Source: Candidatus Nanohaloarchaea archaeon (GTDB taxonomy: Archaea > Nanohalarchaeota > Nanosalinia > Nanosalinales > Nanosalinaceae). From it: a stretch of DNA of 64,000 bases. Below the pieces are notes generated by a model. That model ran no database searches, had not been told where the DNA came from, and saw only the letters and a program-made list of their open reading frames with translations. Positions within the stretch are counted from its first letter, which is position 1. Every line of letters begins with the position of its first letter. A program made the position numbers and the translations under genes. Positions 26,348 to 45,164 of this stretch are shown here, in pieces. The stretch lies in the NCBI GenBank assembly GCA_013343275.1, contig CP046106.1:768001-832000 (forward strand), written 5' to 3'.

Positions 26348-26388
26348 TGGAAACTGTAAAAAACTAGAGTGAGATAAGTGTTGTTATA

Positions 26389-28066: not shown

Positions 28067-28477
28067 ATGGGATACGAAATACTTGAACACACTGCCGACG
28101 AAAAATTCCAGGCCTCCGGAGACAGCCTGGAAGAAGCATTCTCCGAAGCAGTAAAGGCCTTCTCGGAGATAGTCGGCGGCATGAACGGTCAGACGACTTA
28201 CAGTATAGAAATAGAATCAGAAAGCCATGAGGCCCTGCTCTTCGACTTCATGGATAAACTAATCTTCTTGCAGGATGTCAACGATGTAGTCGTCTCTCAC
28301 GCCGAAGACCTTGAAATAGAGGAACTTGAAGAAGGTTACTGGTTGACAGCAGATATCTGGGCCGACAATATCGAAGGCTCAATGAGCGTTATGGATGTCA
28401 AGGCACCAACATACAGCGAGATGTACGTCAGGTTCGAAGACGGCAAGTGGAGACTGCAGGTAGTGCTCGATATATAA
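28067..28477 (+). CDS. Archease
   Basis: YEILEHTAD, VKAPTY and C-terminal VLDI; adjacent to rtcB. Confidence 0.93.
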   Translation: MGYEILEHTADEKFQASGDSLEEAFSEAVKAFSEIVGGMNGQTTYSIEIESESHEALLFDFMDKLIFLQDVNDVVVSHAEDLEIEELEEGYWLTADIWADNIEGSMSVMDVKAPTYSEMYVRFEDGKWRLQVVLDI

Positions 28478-28509
28478 CTGTAAAAAGAGTTCACGGATAA
28501 TTCTCGAAT

Positions 28510-30512: not shown

Positions 30513-31484
30513 ATGTCACAGAAGAATCGATCAAGAAGCGGATCTCTAGGATTCAAGCCTAAGGTCCGAGCAGAAAGAATCTACCCAGACATCGATAACT
30601 GGGAGGAAACAGACGAACTAAAACCGCTAGGCTTCGCAGGCTACAAAGTAGGAATGTCCAGAGTAATGATGATAGATGATACAGAAGGAGCAACACAGGG
30701 ACAGGAAGTAGCAGAAGCAGTAACAATACTAGAAGCACCGCCGCTCAGAGTATACGGAGCACGCTTCTACACACACGACGTTAACTCAGGTAAAGAAGTA
30801 TTTACAGAGGCCTGGACAGAATCTCCAGCACCAGAACTGCAGAGAGCAGTCGATGTACCGAAGGAAGGGAATATGGAGAACCTAGAGAAGGCCAAAGAGA
30901 ACGCAGATAAGATTACAGACATCCGACTGCTGGTCCACACACAGCCAAATCAGGCAGGACTCAGCAAGAAGACGGCAGAGAACTTCGAACTAGGAATCGG
31001 AGGCGACGTAGAAGATCAGCTCGAATACGCAGAAGAGATGATCGGAAAACAGATCGAATTCGATCAGGTATTCGAAGAAGGAGAATACTCAGATGTAGTA
31101 GCAGTAACCAAAGGAAAAGGAATGGAAGGCCCGGTCCAGAGATACGGAATCAAGAAACTCGGCCACAAGACTCAGAAGAAACGAAGAAAGGCCGGAAACG
31201 TAGGCCCATGGCACCCTGATACACTTTCATGGAAGGTACCACTGCCAGGCCAGCAAGGATACAACAACAGGACAGAACTCAACAAGAGAATCCTCGCACA
31301 GGGAGAAGATCCGGAAGACGTACAGAGAGACGGAGGATTCAAGAATTACGGAGAAGTTCAGTCCAACTACATTATAATCAAAGGCTCAGTACCAGGCCCA
31401 TCAGAGAGACTGATCAGGCTTCGAACAGCTATCAGAGAAGAAGGAAAACCAGGAACACCAGAAATTACTTACGTTGACCAATAG
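30513..31484 (+). CDS. rpl3: 50S ribosomal protein uL3
   Basis: RSGSLGFKP, FAGYKVGM, VTKGKGMEGPVQRYG and KGSVPGP. Confidence 0.97.
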   Translation: MSQKNRSRSGSLGFKPKVRAERIYPDIDNWEETDELKPLGFAGYKVGMSRVMMIDDTEGATQGQEVAEAVTILEAPPLRVYGARFYTHDVNSGKEVFTEAWTESPAPELQRAVDVPKEGNMENLEKAKENADKITDIRLLVHTQPNQAGLSKKTAENFELGIGGDVEDQLEYAEEMIGKQIEFDQVFEEGEYSDVVAVTKGKGMEGPVQRYGIKKLGHKTQKKRRKAGNVGPWHPDTLSWKVPLPGQQGYNNRTELNKRILAQGEDPEDVQRDGGFKNYGEVQSNYIIIKGSVPGPSERLIRLRTAIREEGKPGTPEITYVDQ

Positions 31485-31497
31485 AGGGTGAAGAAGA

Positions 31498-32256
31498 ATG
31501 ACAGATCTACCAATTCAGTTTACGGAAAGAGTGAGAGATGACCTCGTCAAGAGAGCAAATCTCTCAATCAAATCCAAGAAACGCCAGAGCTACGGAGCAG
31601 ATCCGGAAGCAGGTAACAAGCACGTTACCTACTGGAAGAAGAAGCAGAACGCTTACAGAGGCCAGAAAGGAAAAGGCATGTCCCGAGTACCACGTAAAAT
31701 TACAGTAAGAAGAGGCATGCAGATCTACGGAGAAGGAGCAGAAGCACCGAACACACGTGGCGGACGTAGAGCACACCCTCCAAAAGCAGAGAAAGACTTC
31801 GAAGAAGAAATCAACGACAAGGAAAGAAGAAAAGCAATCAGATCAGCAATCGCAGCAACAGCAGATCAAGACCTTGTCACAGAGAAACACGCATACGAAG
31901 GAGAAGTCCCTCTAGTAGAAACAGGTCTTGAAGACATAGAAAAAACACAGGACCTCAAAGAAAGACTAGAAGAACTAGGTCTTGAAGAAGAACTTTCCCG
32001 AGCCAAGCAGAAGAAGGTAAGAGCTGGCAAAGGAAAGAACAGAGGCCGTAAATACGTTACACGAGCAGGCCCTCTAGTAGTGGTTGCAGAAGATGAAGGA
32101 ATCAAGGACGCAGGAAGCAATCTTGCAGGAGTAGAGGTCTCACTGGTCGATCAGCTTAACGCTGAGAAACTTGCTCCAGGAGCAGAGCCAGGAAGACTTA
32201 CAGTCTGGAGCGAAAAAGCACTGGAAAAACTTGACGAAGAGGAACTTTTCCAATAA
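31498..32256 (+). CDS. rpl4: 50S ribosomal protein uL4
   Basis: GGRRAHPPK, INDKERRKAIRSAIAAT and LAPGAEPGRLTVW. Confidence 0.97.
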   Translation: MTDLPIQFTERVRDDLVKRANLSIKSKKRQSYGADPEAGNKHVTYWKKKQNAYRGQKGKGMSRVPRKITVRRGMQIYGEGAEAPNTRGGRRAHPPKAEKDFEEEINDKERRKAIRSAIAATADQDLVTEKHAYEGEVPLVETGLEDIEKTQDLKERLEELGLEEELSRAKQKKVRAGKGKNRGRKYVTRAGPLVVVAEDEGIKDAGSNLAGVEVSLVDQLNAEKLAPGAEPGRLTVWSEKALEKLDEEELFQ

Positions 32257-32272
32257 AAGGTGACAAAGAAAA

Positions 32273-32542
32273 ATGGAAGATGACAAAGCTTGGGAAATAA
32301 TCGAGAACCCTCACATGACAGAACAGGCAATGGACATGATTGACGAAGAGAACAAGCTTGTTCTCATGGTAGATCTCGACGCAAACAAGAACCAGGTAGA
32401 AGACGCAGTACAGACACTATTTGATGTTGAAGTAACCAAAGTAAATACCAACATCACACCGCAGGCCCAGAAAAAGGCCTACGTAAAACTCTCACAGAGC
32501 GACTCCGCGATGGATGTCGCAACCGAACTAGGTATGATGTAA
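32273..32542 (+). CDS. rpl23: 50S ribosomal protein uL23
   Basis: TEQAM...ENKL, VNT and KKAYVKL. Confidence 0.96.
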   Translation: MEDDKAWEIIENPHMTEQAMDMIDEENKLVLMVDLDANKNQVEDAVQTLFDVEVTKVNTNITPQAQKKAYVKLSQSDSAMDVATELGMM

Positions 32543-32544
32543 GA

Positions 32545-32601
32545 ATGAAGAAAATCGCAGATTTTCAGAGTAGCAGAAAACACAGAGGTGTTTTCAACTA
32601 A
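32545..32601 (+). repeat. Dual-hairpin micro-ORF cassette copy 1 (rpl23 to rpl2); peptide MKKIADFQSSRKHRGVFN
   Basis: GAAAATC-GCA-GATTTTC and GAAAACAC-AGAG-GTGTTTTC; the TAA overlaps the rpl2 ATG (TAATG). Confidence 0.8.
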
Positions 32602-33302
32602 TGGGAAGTCCACTAAGACAACAACGAAGAGGAAAAGGATCTCCGAACTACCAGTCTAACTCTCATAAATCCAAGGGAGATGTAGAGACAAAAAGAGCAG
32701 AAACTCAGGGAACAGTAGTAGATCTAGTACACGACCCAGGAAGAACATCCCCTGTAGCAGTAGTAGAGTTCGAGGACGGAGAAGAAAGAAACATCCTAGC
32801 GCCAGAAGGCCTAGCAGTAGGCGACACAATCGAGCTAGGAGTATCCGCAGAAGTCAAACCAGGAAACACACTTCCTGTAGGAGAGATCCCAGAAGGAGTA
32901 CCAATCCACAATCTAGAACTCCAGCCGAACGACGGCGGCCAGATCGCCAGAAGCAGCGGAACATACGCATTCGTCGTAACACACGAAAAAGATGGGGTAA
33001 GAGTAAAGCTTCCAAGCGGAGACTTCAAAAAGTTGAATACTAGCTGCCGTGCAACAATTGGAAAAGTAGCAGGCGGCGGAAGAAAGGAGAAACCGTTCGT
33101 AAAGGCCGGAAACAAGTCCAAGGCTATGAAGGCCAGAGGCAAGGCCTATCCGAAGGTCTCCGGCGTAGCAATGAACGCAGTAGACCACCCATTCGGTGGA
33201 TCCGCAAAACCAGGAAAAGCAAAGACAGTTTCCAAGCACGCCTCACCAGGGCGTAAAGTCGGAAACATCGGCGCAAGCCGCAGCGGAAAGAAGAAAGAGT
33301 AA
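32601..33302 (+). CDS. rpl2: 50S ribosomal protein uL2
   Basis: HDPGRT, RSSGT and GVAMNAVDHPFGG. Confidence 0.98.
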   Translation: MGSPLRQQRRGKGSPNYQSNSHKSKGDVETKRAETQGTVVDLVHDPGRTSPVAVVEFEDGEERNILAPEGLAVGDTIELGVSAEVKPGNTLPVGEIPEGVPIHNLELQPNDGGQIARSSGTYAFVVTHEKDGVRVKLPSGDFKKLNTSCRATIGKVAGGGRKEKPFVKAGNKSKAMKARGKAYPKVSGVAMNAVDHPFGGSAKPGKAKTVSKHASPGRKVGNIGASRSGKKKE

Positions 33303-33313
33303 GGTGATCAATT

Positions 33314-33694
33314 ATGGCAGACGAAGACTTTACATTCAGAGGAAAAACAATGGACGAACTCCGAGACATGGATCTCGAAGAGTTCGCCGACCTCCTCGAT
33401 GCAAGAGGCCGAAGAAAGATTCAGAGAGGCCTCAGAGAGGACGAGGAGAAGATCCTCGAAGATCTCGAGGAAAAAGACACAGTCAAAACCCACAGAAGAG
33501 GGATGATAGTAGTACCGAAGATGGTAGGAAACACCCTTCAGGTCTACAACGGACAGAGGTTCATCGAAGTAGAAGTCGAGGCACAGATGCTCGGCCACTA
33601 CCTCGGAGAATTCGCAAGAACCCGAAAAGAAGTCGAACACAGCGCACCAGGACTTGGTGCAACACGTTCGTCCAAACACATCCCGCTCAAGTGA
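33314..33694 (+). CDS. rps19: 30S ribosomal protein uS19
   Basis: FTFRG, KTHRR, MLGHYLGEF and GATRSSKHIPLK. Confidence 0.97.
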   Translation: MADEDFTFRGKTMDELRDMDLEEFADLLDARGRRKIQRGLREDEEKILEDLEEKDTVKTHRRGMIVVPKMVGNTLQVYNGQRFIEVEVEAQMLGHYLGEFARTRKEVEHSAPGLGATRSSKHIPLK

Positions 33695-33702
33695 TTTAAC
33701 CT

Positions 33703-34113
33703 ATGGAACTTGACGCACACCAAGCATTTGCACAGGGCCGAAACATGCCTGTATCATGGAAGGACTGCACAGAAGTCGGACGCTTCATCAAAGGCGACTC
33801 TGTAGAGAAAGCAGAGAGAAAGCTCGAGAAAGTAATCGAGAAAGAACTCGCAGTACCCTACACAAAGTTCGACAGCGATGTCGGCCACAGAAGCGGACAT
33901 GGAGACTCCGGAAGATACCCGGAGAAAGCATCCAAGGAAATCCTGGAAGTTCTCAGATCTGCAGCATCAAATGCAGAGCACGAAGGCCTCAACCCTGGTG
34001 CACTTGAAGTACAGAACGTCATCACCAACAAAGGCCAAGAAATGAGAACTCCCGGAAGACATCCTGGAGAGACAAAAGCAGCACACGTAAAAATAATTGT
34101 AGGAGAGCGATAA
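33703..34113 (+). CDS. rpl22: 50S ribosomal protein uL22
   Basis: VSWK, VGHR, GRYPEKA and NAE; canonical position. Confidence 0.95.
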   Translation: MELDAHQAFAQGRNMPVSWKDCTEVGRFIKGDSVEKAERKLEKVIEKELAVPYTKFDSDVGHRSGHGDSGRYPEKASKEILEVLRSAASNAEHEGLNPGALEVQNVITNKGQEMRTPGRHPGETKAAHVKIIVGER

Positions 34114-34114
34114 T

Positions 34115-34168
34115 ATGACCGAAAATCAGAGATTTTCTGGGCATGCAAAAGACCGAGGTGGTCTTTGA
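34115..34168 (+). repeat. Dual-hairpin micro-ORF cassette copy 2 (rpl22 to rps3); peptide MTENQRFSGHAKDRGGL
   Basis: GAAAATC-AGA-GATTTTC and AAAGACC-GAGGT-GGTCTTT; the TGA abuts the rps3 ATG. Confidence 0.75.
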
Positions 34169-35233
34169 ATGCAAGAGAAAAAATTCATTCAGAAAGGAGC
34201 ACGTAAGGTAAGACTTCACGAGTTCCTTGAAGAAGAACTTGAAGGCGCAGGATACAGTCACGCAGACCTGGTAAGAACACCTACATCAGCAAAAATCGTG
34301 ATCTACGCACAGAGACCGGGCCTCGTCATCGGAAGAGGGGGTTCCAGGATCAAGGAACTCACAGCAGATCTCGAAGAAGAATTCGACTTCGATAACCCAC
34401 AGATCGAGGTTAACGAGATCGAAGAACCTGATGCAGATGCAGAAGTAGTAGCAAAGAGCATCGCAAACTGGCTTGAGAAAGGAGGCCACGCCAAACGTGT
34501 AGGATACACCTACATCAGAAGAATGAAGGAAGCAGGAGTAACAGGAGCAGAAGTAGAGATCACAGGAAAGCTCTCCGGAAACAGAGGCCGTACAGAGAAG
34601 TTCTCATTCGGATACGTAAAGAGATGCGGAAACACCTCTAAGGAAAACGTGGATAAAGGATACGAACTGGCCCGTACAAAGCCAGGAGCAATCGGAGTCA
34701 AAGTACGCATGATGAAGGAAATGCCGGACTTCATGCACAGAGACGTCGATGTCAGCGAGGAAATCCTCCACGAATCAGAAGTCTCAGAAGAATCACAGAT
34801 CAAGTCCGACAGAATCCAGCAGGTACTGGAAGAAGCAGAAAGCATGACTTCCTCCGAACTTGAGAGAGCAATCGAAGAGAAGGCAGAGACAATAGAGACA
34901 GGAGACATCTCCAAAGAAGAAGTCAGAGAGGCCTTCGAAGCAAGAGAGGAATCAGAGCCAGAAGAAGTCGAAGCCGAAGAACCAGAAGAGTCTGAATCTG
35001 AAGAAGCATCTTCTGAGGAGCAATCTTCCGAAGAGGAAGAGGACACAGAAGACTCATCTGAACAGGAAGAGACTGAAGAGACGGATGTAGAGGAAATTGT
35101 CTCAGGAACCATCAGCGACGCAAAGGACGCAATCTCAGAAATGGAGGATCCTGACTACGGCGCAATTCTACAGGCCGAGAAAGCCAACAAAAACCGAACA
35201 ACCTTTATTGACTGGCTTGAATCCCAGCAATAA
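34169..35233 (+). CDS. rps3: 30S ribosomal protein uS3 with long acidic C-terminal extension
   Basis: RPGLVIGRGG KH motif, GKLSG and KPGAIGVKV. Confidence 0.97.
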   Translation: MQEKKFIQKGARKVRLHEFLEEELEGAGYSHADLVRTPTSAKIVIYAQRPGLVIGRGGSRIKELTADLEEEFDFDNPQIEVNEIEEPDADAEVVAKSIANWLEKGGHAKRVGYTYIRRMKEAGVTGAEVEITGKLSGNRGRTEKFSFGYVKRCGNTSKENVDKGYELARTKPGAIGVKVRMMKEMPDFMHRDVDVSEEILHESEVSEESQIKSDRIQQVLEEAESMTSSELERAIEEKAETIETGDISKEEVREAFEAREESEPEEVEAEEPEESESEEASSEEQSSEEEEDTEDSSEQEETEETDVEEIVSGTISDAKDAISEMEDPDYGAILQAEKANKNRTTFIDWLESQQ

Positions 35234-35262
35234 ATAAAAGGAACTAACAGAAGTGATTAACC

Positions 35263-35460
35263 GTGTCAGAACTTTCAATCTCTGAACTCAGAGAAAAAGA
35301 CGCCTCCGAACTCAAACAGGACCTTACAGATCTACAGAAGGAACTTGTACAGGAAAGAGGCCAGATAGAAGTCGGAGGATTTGCCGACAACCCTGGCCGA
35401 CTCGGAGAAATGAAGAAAACCATCGCACGTATCAAAACAGTTCTCAACGAACGCCAATAA
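35263..35460 (+). CDS. rpl29: 50S ribosomal protein uL29
   Basis: NPGRLGEMKKTIARIKT. Confidence 0.95.
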   Translation: MSELSISELREKDASELKQDLTDLQKELVQERGQIEVGGFADNPGRLGEMKKTIARIKTVLNERQ

Positions 35461-35469
35461 AGAATTATA

Positions 35470-35778
35470 ATGTCAGATCTCAATCCCAACAGCGGACTAC
35501 CCGACGAACTCGACGTCACCGACCAACTAGCAAGATCAGAACAGAAAATCACTGTAAAGATCGACACAAGAAGCTTCGGCAAAGAAGTCACAGTAGTCGA
35601 AGGCCTTGGAGAAGAAATCAACCTCGATGACCTATCCTCCAAACTCAAGTCCAAACTTGCATGCGGAGGAACAGTCAAAGACGGCCACATCGAACTCCAG
35701 GGCGACCACACACGTCGAATCGAAGACGTCCTCGCAGACCAGGGATTCGACAAAGAAAACATCGAAATCCAGAGATAA
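35470..35778 (+). CDS. Translation initiation factor SUI1/aIF1
   Basis: GKEVTVVEG and LKSKLACGGTVKDGHIELQGDH. Confidence 0.95.
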   Translation: MSDLNPNSGLPDELDVTDQLARSEQKITVKIDTRSFGKEVTVVEGLGEEINLDDLSSKLKSKLACGGTVKDGHIELQGDHTRRIEDVLADQGFDKENIEIQR

Positions 35779-35872
35779 AATCATCCTCTGGGCCTGTTCA
35801 CATCTCCCTTTTTTACTTTCTACCTAGAAACCAACAGTTTCAAGTTGATACCTGCATAAAATCTAACTGGCT

Positions 35873-36616
35873 ATGAAGGCAACAATTCTGGGTTCAGGAG
35901 ACCCTCTAGGAATGCCGGTACCTATGTGTAAATGCAAGTACTGTAGAAAAGGCCCTGAAAGATTGAGAGCAGGCCTTAAGGTGGAGACAGAGGATTCAAC
36001 AGTTGTTTTCGATATAGGCCCTGATCTCCGTCAACAGCTTATCTCAACTGATACTTCGGATGTAGATGCCTTTTTCGCAACTCACGCTCATTTCGATCAC
36101 TTTGGAGGCCTTCCTGAATTAAGTAATCTTGACGTATTTGCTGATGCCGAAATCTCTATCTATGGTAGTGAAGAGGTTCAGAACTACATTGAAGATGTTT
36201 ACAGCTGGATAGATATCGATTACACAGTCTTCGAAGGCAGTACAGAGATCGGAGATCTAACTGTAGAGGCCTTCCCGGTAGAGCACTCGGAGTTCCTTCC
36301 AATGCAGGGTTACGCCGTTGAAAGCTGGGGCAAGAAGGTTGTGTACATACCTGATCTCAAATCCCTTCCGGAAACAGATGTCTACAGGGATGCAGACGTT
36401 CTATTTATTGATGGAATGTACCTGTTCGAGAAACACATGGAAGATGACGAGGATCACGCAGCGAAGGAGGAATTAAAGGCCGAGATAGAGAAATGCAACG
36501 CAGAAAAAGTAGTGCTCTTAGGGATGTCGGAACACTTCAACGAAATGACTGTGGAAGAAGAGAAAGAAAAAACCAGGTACGAGATAGGGAAAGACTTCAA
36601 AGAATACTCTCTCTAG
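35873..36616 (+). CDS. Metallo-beta-lactamase fold hydrolase (PhnP-like)
   Basis: ILGSG...VPMCKCKYC, DIGPDLRQQ, THAHFDHFGG and VEH. Confidence 0.88.
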   Translation: MKATILGSGDPLGMPVPMCKCKYCRKGPERLRAGLKVETEDSTVVFDIGPDLRQQLISTDTSDVDAFFATHAHFDHFGGLPELSNLDVFADAEISIYGSEEVQNYIEDVYSWIDIDYTVFEGSTEIGDLTVEAFPVEHSEFLPMQGYAVESWGKKVVYIPDLKSLPETDVYRDADVLFIDGMYLFEKHMEDDEDHAAKEELKAEIEKCNAEKVVLLGMSEHFNEMTVEEEKEKTRYEIGKDFKEYSL

Positions 36617-36625
36617 TTAACTAAT

Positions 36626-36901
36626 ATGCCAATAACACCAGAAAACCTCCCGAAACACGAACTCATAGGCCTCCATGTAGAGGTAGTTGAGTCAACAGAT
36701 GAGACTCTCGAAGGCCTTGAGGGAGAGGTTATGGATGAAACCAAGTCCATGCTGAGAATCGACGGGAAACAGATGCAGAAAAAGAACTGCACGTTTCTCT
36801 TCGAGATACCTTCAGGAGAGGAGGTAGAGGTAGATGGGGAGCTTATTGCGAAAAGGCCTGAAGAGCGTACAGGCATGAAACTGCCGGAAAAATACCGGTA
36901 A
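36626..36901 (+). CDS. rnp1: RNase P protein component 1 (Rpp29/POP4)
   Basis: HELIGL, GEVMDETK and RPEER. Confidence 0.93.
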   Translation: MPITPENLPKHELIGLHVEVVESTDETLEGLEGEVMDETKSMLRIDGKQMQKKNCTFLFEIPSGEEVEVDGELIAKRPEERTGMKLPEKYR

Positions 36902-36940
36902 AGGCCTTTCTTTGAGTTCCACTTACTACTTCAAAGTACC

Positions 36941-37170
36941 CTTTTAAAGTTTGTCTTTGAATGTGTTCTTACGAACCTCAAAACTTGATTGAGGTCTTGA
37001 TAACCGCTGGAAGTCGAGTCTTTGGCTCGATACTTTCGGTGGTCTGCTTGGAAAACCCACGTTTGTGAGTGTTTTTGCTGCAGACTCTCCGATTTGCTAT
37101 TTCTGGCGGTTGTAGAACCTCCAATCAGATCAATAAACAAACAATTAGACAATCGAAAGGTGAACAAGGC
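36941..37170 (+). ncRNA. Promoter plus about 200 nt structured leader RNA upstream of rps17 (candidate r-protein leader)
   Basis: TTTTAAA at 36942; hairpin 36975-36995; 14 bp helix 37000-37013/37100-37113 enclosing two stems. Confidence 0.55.
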
Positions 37171-37461
37171 TTGACTGAAACAAATGAATCCAGCGAATAC
37201 CCAATCAGGGGCGGAGTATTTACAGGAACAGTAGAATCCACGAAAATGCAGAAATCCGCAACTGTACGATGGGAACACACACAGGAAATTCCGAAATACG
37301 AGAGAAAAGAGAGAAGAAACACAAAGATCACAGTCCACGTCCCTGAAGACATGGAGATCGAGGAAGGCGACACAGTAAAGGTCGGAGAGACCAAGCCAAT
37401 CTCAAAAACCAAGAGCCATGTAGTAATGGAAAAAATAACCGACGAAGAAAACGAGGAGTAG
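37171..37461 (+). CDS. rps17: 30S ribosomal protein uS17
   Basis: TTG start after SD AAGGTGA; KMQKSATV, PKYERKE and GETKPISKTK. Confidence 0.95.
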   Translation: MTETNESSEYPIRGGVFTGTVESTKMQKSATVRWEHTQEIPKYERKERRNTKITVHVPEDMEIEEGDTVKVGETKPISKTKSHVVMEKITDEENEE

Positions 37462-37468
37462 ATTCTAA

Positions 37469-37867
37469 ATGAAGCCACTAGGAGCAAGCATTACAAGAGG
37501 CCTGGACCAGGGCGCAGAACTAACATGCGCAGACAACTCCGGAGCTAAAAAACTGAAGATCATCGGAGTTAAAAGCCAGAAAGGCCGAAGGTCAAGAAGA
37601 AACTCCGCAGGAATCGCAGACAAAGTAGTAGTAAGAGTCCTCAAAGGAGACGAGGAAACAAAACACGAAATATTCGAAGCAGTAGTTGTCAGACAGAGAC
37701 AGGAATTCGAAAGACCAGAAGGAACACGAGTAAAATTCGAAGACAACGCAGCAGTACTAGTAGAAGAAAACGGGCTTCCAAAAGGTTCAGTAACCCGAGG
37801 CCCAATTGCAAAAGAAGTAGTACAGCGATACTCCCCGATCGGGAAGATCGCATCAAAGGTGGTGTAA
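37469..37867 (+). CDS. rpl14: 50S ribosomal protein uL14
   Basis: CADNSGAK, FEDNAAV and GPIAKE. Confidence 0.98.
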   Translation: MKPLGASITRGLDQGAELTCADNSGAKKLKIIGVKSQKGRRSRRNSAGIADKVVVRVLKGDEETKHEIFEAVVVRQRQEFERPEGTRVKFEDNAAVLVEENGLPKGSVTRGPIAKEVVQRYSPIGKIASKVV

Positions 37868-37869
37868 CG

Positions 37870-37920
37870 ATGAAAATCGCAGATTTTCGGAGTAGCAGAA
37901 AACAAGGTGTTTTCAACTAA
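37870..37920 (+). repeat. Dual-hairpin micro-ORF cassette copy 3 (rpl14 to rpl24); peptide MKIADFRSSRKQGVFN
   Basis: GAAAATC-GCA-GATTTTC and GAAAACA-AGG-TGTTTTC; TAATG overlap with rpl24. Confidence 0.8.
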
Positions 37921-38558
37921 TGAGCAACAACGAATGGAGCAGAAGCTGGAACTCAAGTAAGAACCCGACGAAGCAGAGAAAATACCGTAGAAACGCACCA
38001 CAGCATGTAAAAGATAAACTAGTGTCAGCAAATCTGGCCTCAGAACTTAGAGAAGAGCTAGGAACCAGAAACCTCAATCTCAAAGTAGGAGACAGAGTAG
38101 AGATCATGAGAGGCGACGACAAAGGAACTTCCGGAGTAATCAGCAGCATCGACAGAGAGAACGGAACAGTAACAGTAAACGGCGTAGAGAACGAACGTAC
38201 AGATGGCACATCCAGAGAAAAAACACTACAGCCATCCAACCTCCAGATCCAGGCACTCAACCTCGAAAACGTCTCAAGAATCGAAGCCTACGATGTAGAA
38301 GATACAGAAGCAATCGAAGTAGATGAAGAAGAACTAGAGGAACTTGAGGAAGAAGAGGAAGAAAATGCAATGATGCAGCAAATGCAGGGCGGAGGAGAAG
38401 CCGCAGACATCAGTGAAGAAGAACTCGAAGAGATTGAAGAAGAAATAGAAGAAGAGGAAACTGAAGCTGAAGAAGAGAAAGACACCGAATCCGAAGAGGA
38501 TTCAGACGAAACCACAGAAGAATCCGATGAAGAATCGGAAGAGAAAGGTGAGCAATAA
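37920..38558 (+). CDS. rpl24: 50S ribosomal protein uL24 with acidic C-terminal tail
   Basis: SKNPTKQRK, GDRVEIMRG and QPSNL. Confidence 0.96.
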   Translation: MSNNEWSRSWNSSKNPTKQRKYRRNAPQHVKDKLVSANLASELREELGTRNLNLKVGDRVEIMRGDDKGTSGVISSIDRENGTVTVNGVENERTDGTSREKTLQPSNLQIQALNLENVSRIEAYDVEDTEAIEVDEEELEELEEEEEENAMMQQMQGGGEAADISEEELEEIEEEIEEEETEAEEEKDTESEEDSDETTEESDEESEEKGEQ

Positions 38559-39215
38559 ATGGGATTCCAAAAACGACTATCAGCACCAAAACACTATCCT
38601 ATCGACAGGAAAAACAACTCTTACGTAGTAGAACTCAAAGGTTCAAGAAGCAAAGACCAGGCTATTCCAACAGCACTATTCCTTAGAGATGTGCTTGGAT
38701 ACGCAGACACAGTAAGCGAAGCCAAGAAAATAGTAAACGATGGCAAAGTCCAGAGAAACGGCGACACAGTAAGAGATATCAAAGAAGGCCTAGGAGTACT
38801 CGACGTAGTCGAAGTAGACGGCCTCGAAGAGACATACAGAATAGTAAAAGACAGCAAAGGCCTCAAATTCATCGCAGTAGAAGATGACAAGGTCCTTGCC
38901 AAGGTAACAGGAAAGAGAGCAGAAGGAGATGAATACGTTTACAGCCTCCACAACGGCGAGAACTACAGAACCAAAGATGAGTTCGAAGTTCAGAGCTCAC
39001 TGATCTTCAACGGAGGAGTCAAGGAAGTACCTCTTGAAGAAGGCGCAGAGGTTCTAATTACAGGAGGCCAGCACGCAGGAGAAACTGCAGAGCTAGTAGA
39101 AGTTAACAGAAGTGGCCTCAAAACCTCAACAGCAACAGTTGAAGAAGCCGACAGACAGTTCGATACACGGCTTGAAAACATTGTAGCAGTTGAAGACGTC
39201 AAGGTGACAGAATAA
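38559..39215 (+). CDS. rps4e: 30S ribosomal protein eS4
   Basis: KRLSAP, LRDVLGYA, LHNGEN and ITGGQHAG. Confidence 0.95.
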   Translation: MGFQKRLSAPKHYPIDRKNNSYVVELKGSRSKDQAIPTALFLRDVLGYADTVSEAKKIVNDGKVQRNGDTVRDIKEGLGVLDVVEVDGLEETYRIVKDSKGLKFIAVEDDKVLAKVTGKRAEGDEYVYSLHNGENYRTKDEFEVQSSLIFNGGVKEVPLEEGAEVLITGGQHAGETAELVEVNRSGLKTSTATVEEADRQFDTRLENIVAVEDVKVTE

Positions 39216-39727
39216 TGACTAACGAGATGAAGCAGATAGAGATTGCAAAAATAACAGTAAATACCTCGGCTGGAGAGGTAGGAGACGAAGTAGAGAAAGG
39301 ATTTACACTTCTCGAAAAGCTTACCGGGAAGCAGCCGGTCAGAACATCCTCGAAAGACGCATCCAAAACGTTCGGACTGAGAGAAGGCCTGAACATTGGA
39401 GCAAAAGTAACACTTCGAGGAGAAGAAGCAAGAGAGTTCCTGGAAAAAGTACTACCTGCGGCAGACAACCAGATCTCTGCAGAATCATTCGACGGAAACG
39501 GAAACTTCGCATTCGGAATTGGAGAATACATCGATGTACCAGGAATGGACTATGATGCCGATATCGGCATGAAAGGATTCGAGGTAGTGGTCAACCTGGA
39601 GAGACCAGGATACAGAGTAAAGCGGAGAGATCACAAACCGGATGAAATCGGCAAAGACCACAAAGTCGATGACGAAGAAGCCAAGGACTTCGTCGAAGAA
39701 GAACTTGGAGCAGAGGTGGTAGAATAA
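39215..39727 (+). CDS. rpl5: 50S ribosomal protein uL5
   Basis: IGAKVTLRG, FDGNGNFAFGI and RPGYRV. Confidence 0.97.
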   Translation: MTNEMKQIEIAKITVNTSAGEVGDEVEKGFTLLEKLTGKQPVRTSSKDASKTFGLREGLNIGAKVTLRGEEAREFLEKVLPAADNQISAESFDGNGNFAFGIGEYIDVPGMDYDADIGMKGFEVVVNLERPGYRVKRRDHKPDEIGKDHKVDDEEAKDFVEEELGAEVVE

Positions 39728-39786
39728 TGATTAGAAATTCGGAGAATTTCATGATCACGCAGAAAACACGAGGTGTTTTCGAGTGA
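39727..39786 (+). repeat. Dual-hairpin micro-ORF cassette copy 4 (rpl5 to rps14); peptide [19 protein letters not shown]
   Basis: GAAATTC-GGA-GAATTTC and GAAAACAC-GAG-GTGTTTTC; the ATG overlaps the rpl5 TAA and the TGA overlaps the rps14 GTG (GTGA). Confidence 0.8.
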
Positions 39787-40007
39787 GCTACGAAGCAGTA
39801 CTGGAACAGATCAAACACAAGAAAGGAAAAAGACAGAAATTCGAGAAACACAACGCTCCAAAGGAAAGAGACTACGGAAAATCCAAGAAAGAATGCAGAA
39901 GATGCGGAAGAACAGGTAGAGGAGTCATCAGCAAATACGATCTCAACTACTGCAGACAGTGCTTCCGTGAAATCGCAGAAGAACTCGGATTCGAACAGCT
40001 CAACTAG
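39783..40007 (+). CDS. rps14: 30S ribosomal protein uS14 (zinc-binding)
   Basis: CRRCG...YCRQCFRE. Confidence 0.96.
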
Positions 40008-40019
40008 GTGACAAAGAAA

Positions 40020-40409
40020 ATGCAGCAAGATACATTCAGCGACGCAATGTCCTCCATCAACAACGCAGTAGATGCAGGCAACGAATACGCAACAATCAGT
40101 CCAACAAGCAGCCTGGTCAAGAACCTACTGCTTAAGCTACAGGAACTGGAATACATCGGCGTTTTCGAATATGTAGAAGACGGCCAGGGAGGCAAATTCC
40201 GAGTAGAAGTCAAAAACCAGGTAAACGAATGCCAGTCCGTAAAACCACGGTTCTCCGTACAGAACGAAGAATACGAGAAATGGGCCAAGAGATACCTACC
40301 GGCTCAAGGATTCGGAGAGCTACTGGTAACCACAAGCCACGGCCTCATGACACACTACGAGGCCCGTGAAGAAGGAATCGGCGGAAAACTACTAGGTTAC
40401 GTCTACTGA
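40020..40409 (+). CDS. rps8: 30S ribosomal protein uS8
   Basis: YIGVFE, KPRF, YLPA, TTSHG and GGKLLGYVY; ATG 40020 follows SD GGTGA. Confidence 0.96.
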   Translation: MQQDTFSDAMSSINNAVDAGNEYATISPTSSLVKNLLLKLQELEYIGVFEYVEDGQGGKFRVEVKNQVNECQSVKPRFSVQNEEYEKWAKRYLPAQGFGELLVTTSHGLMTHYEAREEGIGGKLLGYVY

Positions 40410-40424
40410 AGGTGAACAAGAAAA

Positions 40425-40958
40425 ATGACAGAACTAACATACGAGCTACCAGAAGGATTCGACGTAGAATACACAGATGACGGAGTCCTAAAGGTAGAAG
40501 GAAACGGAGAAGAAACAGAGAAGCAAATCCAGCACTCGCTGGTAGAAGTAGAAGTAGACGGAGATACAGTAAAGTTCACGCCACTAAGAGAGAAGAAAGA
40601 TATAGTCAGCGTGGCAAAGACATTTAGATCCCACCTAGAAAACATGGTAGAAGGCCTGCAGAACTCGCATGTCTACCATCTAAAAGGAGTATACGCACAC
40701 TTCCCGATGACAATCAAGAAGGAAGGCGATGAAGTAGTAGTCGAGAACTTCATGGGAGAAAGACACCCAAGAAGAGCAGACATCATGGAAGGCGTAGACG
40801 TAAACGTAGACGGCGACGAAATCACAGTAAAAGGCCCTAACAAGGATAAGGTAAGTCAGACAGCAGCACGGATCGAACAGCTTTCCCGCAAAGGAAACCG
40901 CGATCCACGTACTTTCCAGGACGGAATCTACATAACAGAGGTGACTCGAAGTGAGTAA
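40425..40958 (+). CDS. rpl6: 50S ribosomal protein uL6
   Basis: YAHFPM, NFMGE and DPRTFQDGIY. Confidence 0.97.
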   Translation: MTELTYELPEGFDVEYTDDGVLKVEGNGEETEKQIQHSLVEVEVDGDTVKFTPLREKKDIVSVAKTFRSHLENMVEGLQNSHVYHLKGVYAHFPMTIKKEGDEVVVENFMGERHPRRADIMEGVDVNVDGDEITVKGPNKDKVSQTAARIEQLSRKGNRDPRTFQDGIYITEVTRSE

Positions 40959-41286
40959 AGACTTCAAAAGACAGGAAACACACAAGAGAAACAGAGTAAA
41001 GAGCTCATGGAGAAAGCCTATCGGCCACCACTCCAATGCACGGCTCAAGAAGAAAAGCGCCCAGAAAATGCCAAAGGCAGGATTCAGAACGCCTAAGGAA
41101 GATAGAGGCAAACACCCTTCAGGATACGAAGAAGTACTTGTACACAATACTGACGATCTTGAGGAAGTAGATTCAGAGACCGAAGCTGCACGGATCGGCT
41201 CCACAGTAGGAGGCCGCAAAAGAGAACAGATAATCGAGAAAGCAGACGATCTTGAAATCAAAGTACTGAACAGAGGTGAAGAATAA
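40951..41286 (+). CDS. rpl32e: 50S ribosomal protein eL32
   Basis: FKRQ, WRKP, HPSGYEEVLV and VGGRKR. Confidence 0.96.
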   Translation: MSKDFKRQETHKRNRVKSSWRKPIGHHSNARLKKKSAQKMPKAGFRTPKEDRGKHPSGYEEVLVHNTDDLEEVDSETEAARIGSTVGGRKREQIIEKADDLEIKVLNRGEE

Positions 41287-41726
41287 TGGATCTAAAAAAC
41301 CAGAGAAGAATGGCAGCAGACATCATGGATGTCGGAGAAGACCGCGTATGGATCGATCCTGACAACCAGGAGAAAGTAGATGAAGCAATTACACGTCAGG
41401 ATATCAGAAACCTGATCGAAGGAGACACCATTCAGAAGAAAGAAAAGAAAGGAACAAGCAAAGGCCGAGCACGAGAGAAAAAGAAGCAGAAGAAGAAAGG
41501 ACGCAGGAAAGGCCAGGGCAGCAGACAGGGAAAGAAAGGAGCCCGTAAATCCGACAAGAAGAAATGGATGGAAAATATTCGAGCAATCCGATCAGAGCTC
41601 AAAGAAATGAGAGATAACGAAGAAATTACACAGGAACAGTACAGAGACCTGTACGACAGAGCAAAGGGAGGATTCTTTAGAGACACAAAACACCTCAAAA
41701 ACTACGTAGAGAACAAAATGGAGTGA
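41286..41726 (+). CDS. rpl19e: 50S ribosomal protein eL19
   Basis: QRRMAA, RVWIDP, GSRQGKKGAR and AKGGFF. Confidence 0.97.
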   Translation: MDLKNQRRMAADIMDVGEDRVWIDPDNQEKVDEAITRQDIRNLIEGDTIQKKEKKGTSKGRAREKKKQKKKGRRKGQGSRQGKKGARKSDKKKWMENIRAIRSELKEMRDNEEITQEQYRDLYDRAKGGFFRDTKHLKNYVENKME

Positions 41727-41731
41727 GTACA

Positions 41732-42241
41732 ATGGCAGAGACATCAAATTACAAAGTACCTTTCAGAAGGAGAAGAGAACAGAAAACAGACTATGAACAA
41801 CGGCTGAAGCTGGTTAAATCTGGAAAACCACGAGCAGTAGTAAGAACAAGCAACCAGCACACAAGATCACACCTTGCACACTACAAGCGAGAAGGTGACG
41901 TAAACGAGGCCCAGACACTCAGCAAAGAACTAGAAGAATACGGCTGGGAACATAACACAGGCAACCTGCCAGCAGCATACCTGACAGGATACCTGACAGC
42001 CAAAAAAGCAGACTCAGAAGAAGCAATCCTCGACATAGGTCTCAGGGAACAGAAAACAGGAGGCCGAATCTTCGCAGCAGTAAAAGGAATGAGAGACGCA
42101 GGCCTTGAAGTACCTGCAGGAGAAGAAGTATTCCCTGCTGAAGGAAGAATTAGAGGAGAACACATCGAAGAAATGAAAGAAGACTCAAACATTACAGAAA
42201 ACTTTGAAGAAGTCAAAGAAAACATCGAAGGTGAATTTTAA
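41732..42241 (+). CDS. rpl18: 50S ribosomal protein uL18
   Basis: FRRRREQKTDY and GNLPAAYLTG. Confidence 0.96.
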   Translation: MAETSNYKVPFRRRREQKTDYEQRLKLVKSGKPRAVVRTSNQHTRSHLAHYKREGDVNEAQTLSKELEEYGWEHNTGNLPAAYLTGYLTAKKADSEEAILDIGLREQKTGGRIFAAVKGMRDAGLEVPAGEEVFPAEGRIRGEHIEEMKEDSNITENFEEVKENIEGEF

Positions 42242-42912
42242 TGGCAGAACAGGAAATAGAAGAAGAAATCTGGACTCCAAAGACAAAACTCGGTAGAGCA
42301 GTGGCCAACGGCCAGATCACAACTATTGAACAGGCTCTAGACCATGAAAGACCGATCATGGAGCCAGAGATCGTCGACCAGCTGACAGATCTGGATGAAG
42401 AAGTAATGCTTATCGGAGGAACTCCGGGAAAGGGAGGCGGAAAAAGAAGAACAGTCTCCAAGAGAACAGCAAGAATGCACAAGTCAGGCGCAAGGTACAG
42501 TTCCAACGCAATGACAGTACTAGGAAACCGTAACGGAGTAATAGGACTAGGCGTAGGAGAATCAGACGATACACGAGCGGCAATCGACGACGCAAATAGA
42601 AACGCCAAGCTTAACCTGATCAAAGTACCTAGAGGAAACGGATCATGGGAGGACAAAGGAGATCACAAGGCCTCCATCCCATTCCAGGTAGAAGGAAAGT
42701 CAGGATCTGTAACAGTAGAGCTTAAACCTGCTCCAAGAGGAACAGGCCTAGTCGCATCCGACGACGTCAAGAAAGTAATGGAGCTCGCAGGAATCGACAA
42801 CATCTGGGTCAAATCCAGAGGAACAACAAGAACACGAGAGAACCTGATCAGAGCAACATTCAACGCTCTGGAGAAACTCTCCGAATATCAGCATGATGGT
42901 GACAACCAATGA
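42241..42912 (+). CDS. rps5: 30S ribosomal protein uS5
   Basis: WTPKTKLG, RGNGSWE and PAPRGTGL. Confidence 0.97.
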   Translation: MAEQEIEEEIWTPKTKLGRAVANGQITTIEQALDHERPIMEPEIVDQLTDLDEEVMLIGGTPGKGGGKRRTVSKRTARMHKSGARYSSNAMTVLGNRNGVIGLGVGESDDTRAAIDDANRNAKLNLIKVPRGNGSWEDKGDHKASIPFQVEGKSGSVTVELKPAPRGTGLVASDDVKKVMELAGIDNIWVKSRGTTRTRENLIRATFNALEKLSEYQHDGDNQ

Positions 42913-42962
42913 TGAAAATCGCAGATTTTCGTGATGCAGAAAACACAGGTGTTTTCGAATGA
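42909..42962 (+). repeat. Dual-hairpin micro-ORF cassette copy 5 (rps5 to rpl30); peptide MMKIADFRDAENTGVFE
   Basis: GAAAATC-GCA-GATTTTC and GAAAACA-CAGG-TGTTTTC; ATGA overlaps at both ends. Confidence 0.8.
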
Positions 42963-43306
42963 TTGCAGCAATCAGAGTAAGAGGAGACGTCGACGCAAGC
43001 GACAAAGCAAGTGCAACACTTCAGAACATGAACCTTGAAAGGAGAAATCAGTGCGTAGTATACGAGGACACTGATTCGATTCGAGGAATGCTGAACAAGG
43101 CCAAAGACTACATCACATATGGCCAGGTATCTGATGAAGCGCTTGAACTGCTTGAAGAAAGGAAAGGATCAGAAATTGAATCTGGCGATGTAATTAATCT
43201 AACACCTCCAAGCAGAGGTTATAAGGATACGAAGAGAAATGTAAATCAGGGCGGAAGCCTTGGTGAAAGAGAAAACCTAGATAACCTGATCGAGAAAATG
43301 GTGTAA
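42959..43306 (+). CDS. rpl30: 50S ribosomal protein uL30
   Basis: IRVRG, GMLNKAKDYITYG and LTPPSRG. Confidence 0.95.
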   Translation: MIAAIRVRGDVDASDKASATLQNMNLERRNQCVVYEDTDSIRGMLNKAKDYITYGQVSDEALELLEERKGSEIESGDVINLTPPSRGYKDTKRNVNQGGSLGERENLDNLIEKMV

Positions 43307-43339
43307 AGGCCTTTTCTCAAATTTTAAGGTGAACTATCA

Positions 43340-43765
43340 ATGACAAAGAGAAGATCCAAGAAGAATAAGTCCGGAAGCAACGGTTACGGAAGCTCCAAGA
43401 AGAACCGTGGAGCAGGAAGCCGTGGTGGAAGAGGTAAAGCAGGAACAGGAAAGAAAGCAAATCACGAAAAAATGACTGAAGATGGAGTCCATGAGCTAGG
43501 AGAAGAAGGATTTACTCCACACGGCTCCACAGAACAGAACGGAATCAACCTCAAGGACATCGATCAGCGGATCGAAGAGTTCGTCGAACAGGGAGTAGCA
43601 GAAGAAACCGATGATGGCTACATCTTCCACGCCGACGAAGCAGGATACGACAAAGTCCTTGGAAGCGGAAAGCTCTTCAAGGACATCGAAGTCCACGCGG
43701 AAGATTTCTCAGACTCCGCCAAAAGAAAGATTGAAGAATCAGGACAGGAAGCCGTAGAGGAATAA
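43340..43765 (+). CDS. rpl15: 50S ribosomal protein uL15
   Basis: RGAGSRGGRGKAG and GYDKVLGSG. Confidence 0.96.
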   Translation: MTKRRSKKNKSGSNGYGSSKKNRGAGSRGGRGKAGTGKKANHEKMTEDGVHELGEEGFTPHGSTEQNGINLKDIDQRIEEFVEQGVAEETDDGYIFHADEAGYDKVLGSGKLFKDIEVHAEDFSDSAKRKIEESGQEAVEE

Positions 43766-43769
43766 CAAA

Positions 43770-45164
43770 ATGTCTTGGATTGTCCAGGCCGCAGGCTATC
43801 TGCCAAGCGTTAAAGAACCCGAAAAAGAACAGTCGCTGAAGCAGATGCTGACCTGGACAGGTATAGTCCTCGTCCTGTACTTCATCCTAGGCTCCATCAA
43901 CCTGTACGGAGCAAACGCAGGCGCAGTAGAACAGGCCCTGCAGACACTACAGACATACCAGACCATTCTAGGAGCACAGATCGGCTCCATAATTACACTC
44001 GGAATCGGCCCAATCGTAACATCCTCCATCATACTGCAGATGCTGGTAGGATCAGAACTACTACCATGGAACACCAATAATGAAGAAGGAAAACAGAAAT
44101 TCCAGGCAGCACAGAAACTAATGGCCTACGCACTGACAATAGTACAGGCCTTCGGATACGTACTTAGCGGAACATTCGGAAACGTAGCAGGAGACCCACA
44201 GCTCATACTACTCCTCGCAGGCCAGATCACGCTCGGAGGATGGCTGATCATCATGATGGACGACCTCGTCCAGAAATGGGGATTCGGATCAGGAACAGGC
44301 CTATTCATCGCAGCAGGAGTATCCAGACAGGTATACATCACAATACTCTCCCCACTGGTAACACCTGAAAACCAGCTATTCTGGACAACAGGAGGAAACC
44401 CGGTCGGAAAACTATTCGTATTCGCACAGACACAGGACTTCACAGCACTAATCCCAATACTCTCAACAATCCTCGTATTCTCCGCAGTAGTATACATGCA
44501 GTCAATGCGTGTAGAAATACCGCTGACATTCGGAAACGTAAGAGGATTTGGACAGAAATGGCCTCTCAAATTCCTATACACATCCAACATGCCGGTAATC
44601 CTGATCGCAGCACTAGTATCAAACATACAGATCGTAGGAACAACACTGGCAGGTCCAGACGGCCAGAGCATCCTCGGAAGCTTCAGCGCACAGGGACAGG
44701 CCCAAGCAGGCCTCGTATACTGGCTTCAAGCACCTGTACAGGTATTCCAGAGCCTGATCACGTCAGGCCTACAGGGAGTAACACCGATGGATATATTCCA
44801 TATATTCTTCTACATCTCAGTGTACGCCTTCGGATCAGTACTGTTCAGCATCTTCTGGATGAAGACCAGCGGACAGGACGCCGATTCAGTTGCGGAACAG
44901 ATACAGGACACAGGTATGAAAGTACCAGGATTCCGAAAAGACAAACGAGTGATCAAGAAAGTACTCAACCGTTACATCCCAGGCCTCACAGTCCTTTCAG
45001 GATTCTCGGTAGGCCTGCTCGCAGCACTCGCAAACATGACACAGGCTGCAGGAGGAGGAACAGGAATCCTCTTGACAGTCATGATCCTCTACCAGCTATA
45101 CGAACAACTGGCACAGAAACACATGGAAGAACTTCACCCGGCAATGAAGGACTTCATCTCCTGA
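43770..45164 (+). CDS. secY: Preprotein translocase subunit SecY
   Basis: LGIGPIVT, KWGFGSG, YTSNMPVIL, PGFR and GTGILL. Confidence 0.98.
   Translation: MSWIVQAAGYLPSVKEPEKEQSLKQMLTWTGIVLVLYFILGSINLYGANAGAVEQALQTLQTYQTILGAQIGSIITLGIGPIVTSSIILQMLVGSELLPWNTNNEEGKQKFQAAQKLMAYALTIVQAFGYVLSGTFGNVAGDPQLILLLAGQITLGGWLIIMMDDLVQKWGFGSGTGLFIAAGVSRQVYITILSPLVTPENQLFWTTGGNPVGKLFVFAQTQDFTALIPILSTILVFSAVVYMQSMRVEIPLTFGNVRGFGQKWPLKFLYTSNMPVILIAALVSNIQIVGTTLAGPDGQSILGSFSAQGQAQAGLVYWLQAPVQVFQSLITSGLQGVTPMDIFHIFFYISVYAFGSVLFSIFWMKTSGQDADSVAEQIQDTGMKVPGFRKDKRVIKKVLNRYIPGLTVLSGFSVGLLAALANMTQAAGGGTGILLTVMILYQLYEQLAQKHMEELHPAMKDFIS

Follow-up and report, generated by a model that had tools for sequence, protein, structure and literature searches.

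Twin-hairpin cassettes in a nanohaloarchaeal ribosomal-protein operon are probably copies of a small insertion element resembling mycobacterial interspersed repetitive units

Why should one ribosomal-protein operon carry, at five of its gene junctions, the same pair of hairpins laid over a Shine-Dalgarno (SD) sequence? The window, that is, the whole stretch of 64,000 nucleotides that was analysed, contains the S10-spc operon of a nanohaloarchaeon, in which a preliminary description had noted five such cassettes and suggested that they might act as a switch. The five cassettes are real, with hairpin 1 beginning at 32550, 34121, 37872, 39734 and 42914; the hairpin-1 pattern has 5 matches in the window against 0.37 expected, and none of 100 shuffles reached 5. 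Each cassette is spanned (5/5) by an ORF of 16–19 codons ending on the next start codon, here termed the relay mini-ORF.

30513..45164, + strand: archaeal S10-spc ribosomal-protein operon, rpl3 to secY (secY and some other genes are presumed from the known operon order)
32545..32601, + strand: copy 1, rpl23/rpl2 junction; relay mini-ORF of 18 aa, its stop overlapping the L2 start by 1 nt
Parts of copy 1, + strand: hairpin 1, 32550-32566; hairpin 2, 32576-32595; SD, 32585-32590
34115..34168, + strand: copy 2, rpl22/rps3 junction; relay mini-ORF of 17 aa, its stop abutting the S3 start
Parts of copy 2, + strand: hairpin 1, 34121-34137; hairpin 2, 34148-34166
37870..37920, + strand: copy 3, rpl14/rpl24 junction; relay mini-ORF of 16 aa
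Parts of copy 3, + strand: hairpin 1, 37872-37888; hairpin 2, 37898-37914
39727..39786, + strand: copy 4, rpl5/rps14 junction; relay mini-ORF of 19 aa, its start overlapping the L5 stop and its stop overlapping the S14 GTG by 4 nt
Parts of copy 4, + strand: hairpin 1, 39734-39750; hairpin 2, 39762-39780
42909..42962, + strand: copy 5, rps5/rpl30 junction; relay mini-ORF of 17 aa with a 4-nt overlap at each end
Parts of copy 5, + strand: hairpin 1, 42914-42930; hairpin 2, 42939-42956

As claimed, all five window copies fold into two hairpins (z = -2.5 to -3.9), and the compensatory double changes are present in hairpin 1 of copy 4 and hairpin 2 of copy 2. Covariation holds in a larger alignment of 33 copies (19 rows chosen by a hairpin filter, with statistics that ignore kinship), where both sides change at 10 of 14 pairs, a level which none of 500 shuffles reached and of which slid registers fell far short. 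The SD, AGGTG, is complementary to the 16S 3' end (GATCACCTCC). It does lie within the loop and 3' arm of hairpin 2, but it is hidden just partially, since its first 2–3 bases are unpaired and its last 1–3 paired. The "invariant" GCA before hairpin 2 is found in 5/5 window copies but does not hold as an invariant outside the window: a rough regex count over 125 model matches gave GCA in 37 and another NCA in 47 more. The generic element comprises two similar hairpins and a linker of 8–11 nt, mostly with TG at its start and CA at its end, and it is this symmetric build (a-a'-linker-a-a') which accounts for the GAAAA/TTTTC arms common to both stems. Hairpin 1 has few G-U pairs (13, versus 43 mismatches, in 861 cells; tRNA stems have 43 in 711) and so gives no indication of tolerating wobble as an RNA would. 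A DNA mini-hairpin explains loop 1 only partially: A occupies position 3 in 98 of 108 cases but G occupies position 1 in just 35, and the portion of the source available to us ascribes extra stability in such loops to GNA loops only (PMC13037366).

Model searches place the cassettes in a family of 45–60 nt repeats, with about 23 copies in the source genome versus 6 in a genome of the same genus (G001). The model matches 39 of the 61 genomes searched, at 0–33 copies per genome; 8 of 36 other genomes of the family, several of them >90% complete, have no match. Copies occur outside translation operons, before genes for ATPase A/B, an RNase PH subunit (exosome), Topo VI A, prephenate dehydrogenase and a transketolase-fold E1 beta subunit. 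Most of the targets encode subunits of the ribosome, RNA polymerase, ATPase or exosome. They are also found at tRNA and rRNA ends, where ORF-less symmetric copies occur; tRNA genes are flanked by 12 of the 37 non-junction copies. Some copies lie in a long non-coding stretch resembling an rRNA leader. Many copies in random orientation and context had been named as the mark of a selfish repeat: other contexts are indeed common, but the orientation is not random, because SD-bearing copies face a start codon. Perfect hairpins of this type number 0 in the 727 kb coding core versus 27 in the 189 kb outside it, and none of the 4 in-frame insertions among 630 orthologues is a cassette. A strict-pattern scan of species genomes matched one record, labelled as a nanohaloarchaeon. 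Another archaeal class gave 0 of 38 genomes in a scan run without a positive control, phage records held no copies, and two viral scans returned 0 and 1 matches, the latter unrelated. Literature searches, with most subscription papers beyond their reach, found no description of this element.

The same operon in G001 carries one of the five cassettes and has clean empty sites at four of the five window junctions, those of copies 1, 3, 4 and 5. The site of copy 2 is empty in locus L274, where the start codon is present just once; that of copy 3 is also empty in contigs of runs X1, X2 and X5, that of copy 4 in L273, L274 and X5, and that of copy 5 in G002 and X5. Fourteen further junction sites of the source genome are, in G001, empty (11), shortened (2) or filled by a longer variant (1). 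Sixteen operon junctions, scored by eye for presence or absence, are filled, each in 1–15 of 22–41 genomes, and on a tree this occupancy takes a minimum of 43 changes versus 103 if each arose once. Loci L273 and L274 are nearly identical but disagree at rpl6/rpl32e, and the rpl18/rps5 junction is occupied by two different cassettes. Turnover is rapid, by gain as well as by loss. The copy most closely related to a given one usually lies at a different gene of a different genome (54/85), and there are no genome-specific bursts, since similarity among copies of one genome does not exceed that among others (p = 0.38). Targeting by flank homology was unsupported (Mantel 130/500 and 191/500).

At genes the element sits on the start codon or a few bases behind it, with a direct repeat of 3–8 bp that includes the start codon; in copy 5 a 6-bp repeat surrounds it. 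Duplications at tRNA, rRNA and gene 3' ends are 11–35 bp; the target-site duplication has no fixed length. The ends of the element show an inverted match of only 4–5 bp, coinciding with the stem of each hairpin.

Junction copies have the SD in hairpin 2, a start codon at the end, and one frame open to the downstream start. Among 85 SD-bearing copies, 76 have an upstream start codon that opens a mini-ORF ending at the start of the next gene, compared with 7 of 170 other frames, a count whose significance is overstated because the ATG flanks form part of the model and the copies are related. All three frames are used (42/29/14), and the stops lie between -5 and +1, chiefly at +1 (28), -2 (27) and -3 (16). 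The relay ORF is retained in 8 of 9 expanded copies of 81–159 nt. In 44 of the 76 copies having an upstream gene the mini-ORF starts no more than 3 nt beyond the upstream stop, and in 30 of the other 32 this start has an SD-like motif of its own.

The best explanation is, in our view, that the cassette is a non-autonomous nanohaloarchaeal insertion element working like the mycobacterial repeats and tolerated because ribosomes are relayed across it; we regard this as likely. In Haloferax a spacing of about 20 nt abolishes coupling, according to the part of the report accessible to us (PMC10666635). A 50-nt hairpin insert at a junction would be expected to break termination-reinitiation coupling, so that only inserts of the relay type would persist at core genes. 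On finishing the upstream gene, or on entering at the old SD, a ribosome would reinitiate on the mini-ORF, melt both hairpins, and terminate at the new start, where the SD of the element, now exposed, would let it reinitiate once more. The gene behind the insert thus probably keeps being translated, and the peptide of the mini-ORF would be incidental. For spreading, what probably counts is the structure that the hairpins form as DNA. Among the options raised in the preliminary description, a REP/MITE-like repeat fits best.

That description had proposed that the hairpin-1 3' arm could pair with the hairpin-2 5' arm and free the SD, or else that a ribosomal-protein repressor binds the cassette. 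Either a conformational switch or recognition by L7Ae or an operon-encoded ribosomal-protein repressor would agree with the covariation, the partly paired SD, the presence of five copies inside one ribosomal operon and the central isomer, which is populated in 5 of the 69 junction copies (6 of 24 non-junction copies). Yet the alternative pairing stays below 0.001 in all five window copies (probability ≤0.0006, or ≤0.0009 with the hairpin-1 5' arm blocked), opening the SD arm costs 5–12 kcal/mol, and we found no two exclusive folds of similar energy of which one frees the SD. A covarying central palindrome was rejected, the linker ends being fixed and without covariation at positions 2–4. A ribosomal-protein repressor is unlikely because copies precede unrelated, non-ribosomal genes and because the junctions of 41 operons are filled only patchily; nor do relatives share a conserved location before a single operon or gene, as in an autoregulatory leader. 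No relevant Rfam family was found (only tRNAs reached gathering score in the window, and six loci gave nothing relevant at E ≤ 1). The K-turn hallmark of tandem sheared G-A pairs and a 3-nt bulge, read by eye, is not in register in all five copies. The published nanohaloarchaeal ncRNAs nc0001–nc0005 (115–322 nt), compared by eye, lack the hairpin-1 motif. We consider such a regulatory RNA very improbable.

Conservation raises a different possibility. In 16 hand-picked pairs of same-site copies the stems differ at 4% of positions (22/496) versus 16% (40/253) for loops and linkers. Of 105 inter-genus same-gene pairs, 8 differ by ≤12%, whereas 4-fold sites differ by 37–71%; among other pairs, 9 of 4440 are near-identical. 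Conservation of same-site copies thus exceeds what a neutral insert should show, and domestication or horizontal spread is possible. Hairpin 2 may have been domesticated to block independent initiation, so that the downstream subunit is made only when the upstream gene is translated, or to tune its level; the predominance of subunits of complexes such as the ribosome and ATPase among the targets would suit this, and hairpins that mask an SD until coupling opens them are reported as an established mechanism (PMC12548453). Most inter-genus same-gene pairs, however, are as divergent as unrelated copies (median 0.38 versus 0.35), the matchless family genomes and the G001 operon manage with few cassettes or none, and recent horizontal transfer of filled alleles or self-correction of palindromes would give equal conservation. 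Although compatible with insertion, domestication of this kind strikes us as unlikely. A signal for RNA processing or stability, where a nuclease cuts or is blocked, splitting long transcripts and trimming tRNA and rRNA precursors, would suit copies at operon junctions, tRNA ends and the apparent rRNA leader; it explains neither the relay ORF nor the direct repeats, sits poorly with the scarcity of G-U pairs in hairpin 1, and seems decidedly improbable.

If the cassette is an insertion element, what moves it? The Y1 transposase (PF01797) is present in 0 of 37 family genomes, no RAYT (Y1 HUH) flanked by repeats was seen, and in other families no model match lies near PF01797 genes. Reverse transcriptase (RT) occurs in 5 of 61 genomes without tracking copy number. 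The RT of the source genome belongs to a DGR, from whose surroundings the hairpin is missing. TnpB and tyrosine integrase were rejected as mobilisers, neither tracking copy number (the integrase had one weak 22-bit model match in 30 loci), as was PolX, which is in the source genome and not G001, yet missing from most copy-rich genomes. There were no model matches at TnpA, TnpB or RT loci and no IS-like repeats on self-comparison of the source genome; these enzyme searches covered Y1 transposase, RT, TnpB, tyrosine integrase and PolX. A gene-content filter (absent from G001, present in G016), covering only 400 of the 948 kb of G016, returned 14 proteins, none nuclease-like by eye. A more speculative proposal, to which we lend little credence, is a transposase-free mobile "translational spacer" copied by host or viral repair into the gene ends of abundant RNAs (start codons, tRNA ends, gene 3' ends) and into its own hairpins, with site-tied variants crossing genera and decaying copies leaving their right end as a gene's new SD, a source of SDs in the lineage.

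Mycobacterial interspersed repetitive units (MIRUs) were reportedly described by Supply et al. 1997. In the accessible portions of two sources they are dispersed repeats of 40–100 bp, tens per genome, at operon start codons, with a small ORF overlapping its neighbours that is thought to preserve coupling, and their mobility is inferred (PMC12548453, PMC3184786). Our element shares the size, the intergenic dispersal in tens of copies (23 in the source genome, up to 33), the co-oriented small ORF overlapping adjacent start and stop codons, the filled and empty orthologous sites, the short direct repeats and the start-codon insertion in operons. So far as those portions go, it differs in being archaeal, with A+T-rich twin hairpins rather than G+C-rich repeats, in departing from the tetranucleotide direct repeat and exclusive 4-nt overlap (its stops range from -5 to +1), and in its SD within hairpin 2, 11–35 bp repeats at tRNA and gene ends, nested expansions and ORF-less symmetric copies at tRNA and rRNA ends. 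Prokaryotic MITEs (Correia, ERIC, RUP, RPE), as partially seen in PMC2229807, are likewise small, non-autonomous and structured, with target duplication and, in some, open frames, and their short inverted ends may have a counterpart in the 4–5 bp match noted above; the cassette is smaller, lacks TA ends and a constant duplication length, yielded no cognate transposase in the searches described, and is not fused in frame into proteins. REP/BIME-RAYT and IS200/IS605 derivatives, in the part of PMC3184786 available, resemble it in short palindromes alternating with linkers, arrays of 3–5 hairpins and restriction to lineages, but the 37 family genomes lack Y1 transposase, no GTAG-like tag was seen, target duplications occur, and junction copies are polar and open in frame. 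Termination-reinitiation in Haloferax and E. coli, from the accessible sections of PMC10666635 and PMC6728339, shares the 1- and 4-nt overlaps and an SD near the upstream stop; here coupling would pass through an inserted mini-cistron in two hand-overs.

As a caution, covariation in hairpins that overlie an SD does not by itself mark a regulatory RNA. Tens of unannotated ORFs of 14–48 codons per genome are implied, their peptides probably irrelevant. The dozens of natural filled/empty allele pairs are material for testing termination-reinitiation and could separate RNA-unfolding from ribosome-scanning models of coupling, a Haloferax reporter system being in existence. If the preferred explanation is true, nanohaloarchaea would possess a counterpart of MIRUs, probably of independent origin, living in the most indispensable operons of a symbiont whose genome is reduced and shows no transposase.

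The archaeal S10-spc ribosomal-protein operon hosts the five cassettes of the window:

Copy 1, between rpl23 and rpl2
Copy 2, between rpl22 and rps3
Copy 3, between rpl14 and rpl24
Copy 4, between rpl5 and rps14
Copy 5, between rps5 and rpl30

The hairpin-1 pattern has 5 matches in the window against 0.37 expected, and each copy is predicted to fold as two hairpins, as the preliminary description had proposed. Its covarying stems are borne out by a set of 33 copies drawn from several genomes: 91.6% of cells pair, and 10 of 14 pairs show double changes, more than in any of the 500 shuffles or any slid register. Because 19 of these rows were selected with a hairpin filter and relatedness was not controlled, the test is below R-scape grade. 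The Shine-Dalgarno sequence (SD) said to be hidden in hairpin 2 is present and complementary to the 16S 3' end, and is only partly paired in the fold. The supposedly invariant GCA does not hold beyond the window; by a rough count it is found in only 37 of 125 model hits. An attenuator-like switch, in which pairing between the two hairpins would free the SD, is not supported by the folding models: the alternative pairing has a probability of at most 0.001 in every one of the five copies, blocking the first arm does not raise it above that, and it lies 5–12 kcal/mol uphill. The initial observation is partly confirmed.

Several neighbouring features of the window may be mentioned. A spacer of about 270 nt before rps17 (36902–37170) contains a TATA-like box; its leader folds strongly (-85.8 kcal/mol), there is no Rfam match, and the corresponding spacer is 150–300 nt in several family relatives. 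A metallo-beta-lactamase-fold gene (35873–36616) between SUI1 and RNase P p29 is absent from G001, a genome of the same genus, and from locus L274 of the compared set. The C-termini of S3 and L24 have long acidic extensions (34740–35233 and 38300–38558), adjoining archease and RtcB genes (28067–29931) lie directly upstream of the ribosomal operon, and two long paralogues, secreted or surface proteins that contain repeated domains, are situated about 6.85 kb apart (14100–26350).

The genome carrying the window (G000), a single contig of 916 kb, yields 23 model hits. Copies do occur outside translation operons, for example before ATPase A and B, Topo VI A and prephenate dehydrogenase; further targets include S27e, S7, S24e, Spt4/RpoE2, an RNase PH subunit, a transketolase-fold E1 beta subunit, an FAD oxidoreductase and OapC. 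The model matches 39 of 61 genomes, which, excluding G000, are distributed as 28/36 in the same family, 10/20 in the rest of the order and 0/4 outside it. Once records near G000 are left out, the strict cassette pattern matches one record in the species-genome collection, a Candidatus Nanohaloarchaea archaeon; this and the acidic proteins suggest that the window belongs to the nanohaloarchaea.

Among 41 operons, with presence judged by eye, 16 junctions hold a cassette in at least one genome (1–15 genomes per junction), and the ribosomal-protein tree requires 43 changes versus 103 under a single gain per junction. G001 has no cassette at four of the five window junctions, and of 14 further G000 sites it has 11 empty, two shortened and one longer. 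Contigs from runs X1, X2 and X5, which belong to relatives and not to this strain, also bridge window junctions without a cassette. In clean filled/empty pairs the insertion lies at the start codon or immediately behind it, with a direct repeat of 3–8 bp:

rps3, direct repeat of 3 bp
RNase PH gene, direct repeat of 7 bp
rpl32e, direct repeat of 8 bp; the near-identical loci L273 and L274 differ there

Twice, the element brought with it an altered start or N-terminus. Cassettes at rps19/rpl22 (genomes G036 and G008) and rpl3/rpl4 (G002) contain a further hairpin pair within the hairpin-1 3' arm, at one and the same position:

L050, 3873–4000, nested hairpin pair, relay frame kept
L056, 11789–11919, minus strand, nested hairpin pair, relay frame kept
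L169, nested hairpin pair, relay frame kept

Nesting at an identical position in two different genes suggests that the element targets its own hairpin. The right end of the element (SD plus tail) is matched by cassette-free rpl23/rpl2 spacers in G036, G011, G020, G032 and G015 and at 214061–214082 of the G000 genome; such matches suggest that a new SD remains where a copy has decayed.

Other inserts were also seen. Long multi-hairpin inserts of higher G+C in L051 (G028; 11450–11600 and 9842–9952) and L052 (G009; 9151–9312) are missed or weakly scored by the model, yet retain an ORF of 28–47 codons whose end lies at or close to the following start. L066 (G051; 2459–2635, 4151–4318 and 12005–12111) and L069 (G047; 12550–12662), from another family of the order, have a different structured-insert family at the same junctions, with direct repeats of 24 and 34 bp and partly with a relay ORF; two IS200/IS605 transposases are also encoded by G051. 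Between rpl32e and rpl19e, eight genomes of other families have a small ORF of about 50 codons that resembles a zinc finger.

Copies away from gene junctions are symmetric, have neither SD nor ORF and are frequently arranged as arrays of 3–5 hairpins; the generic element is therefore two like hairpins joined by a TG...CA linker, whose right end is the "GCA." Twelve of these 37 copies flank tRNA genes, several duplicating 11–28 bp of the tRNA end, with some duplications starting at the T-loop, and at one copy the final 21 bp of a protein gene are duplicated. Perfect hairpins of the cassette type number 0 in the 727 kb coding core versus 27 in the 189 kb outside it.

A 16–19 codon ORF spans each window cassette, beginning at or adjoining the upstream stop and ending on the downstream start. 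From the 125 model hits of at least 30 bits (10 genomes, opposite-strand duplicates removed), 85 SD-bearing copies with a downstream gene remain after exclusion of five that are parts of longer arrays or lack a real start and one without a start. In 76 of these 85 the frame of the nearest start codon runs to a stop located between -5 and +1 relative to the downstream start, as against 7/170 for the remaining frames, a large contrast for which a p-value is not meaningful because the model includes the ATG flanks and the copies are related. Since the copies use all three frames relative to hairpin 1 (42, 29 and 14), the peptide is not conserved. The relay is retained in 8/9 expanded copies (81–159 nt).

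The main rival, which we regard as unlikely, is that the host has domesticated the cassette. Stems differ by 4% and loops and linkers by 16% in 16 hand-picked orthologous pairs, and same-gene inter-genus pairs differing by no more than 12% (8/105, against 9/4440 for different genes) occur beside genes whose 4-fold sites differ by 37–71%. These near-identical pairs and the conserved stems are evidence against a purely neutral passenger; they could each result from purifying selection acting at some of the sites, from a recent transfer of alleles already filled or from self-correction of the palindrome. The median same-gene inter-genus pair diverges to the same extent as unrelated copies.

Turnover, landing position, direct repeats, SD and relay frame are established, and the best reading is that of a MIRU-like mobile relay element, which we consider probable. 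The element functions much as reviews describe for MIRUs (PMC12548453, PMC3184786); because repeat length and overlap vary and no RAYT was found, the element is not classed as MIRU, MITE or REP. It bears no resemblance to the five published nanohaloarchaeal ncRNAs (PMC10266531), and no description of it was found in the literature searched. Copy number is not tracked by Y1 transposase, RT, TnpB, tyrosine integrase or PolX. Scans of viral and phage records gave no copies, no genome-specific bursts were detected, and flank homology did not predict which variant lands where. The diversity-generating retroelement of G000 (L096, 207271–210680; RT, template and variable repeats, pilin-like target) is unrelated to the cassette. 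PolX in G000 adjoins, by eye, an NAD-dependent DNA ligase-like gene (626714–630445), and G001 has neither.

The hairpins may be important at the DNA level: G-U pairing is scarce (13 versus 43 mismatches), although loop 1 fits the stable GNA DNA loop in part only. A spacing of about 20 nt abolishes reinitiation in Haloferax (PMC10666635) and an upstream ribosome can open SD-masking hairpins (PMC12548453). A ribosome on the mini-ORF would melt the hairpins, be carried across the insert and hand over at the new start, and the host would tolerate the element because of this relay.
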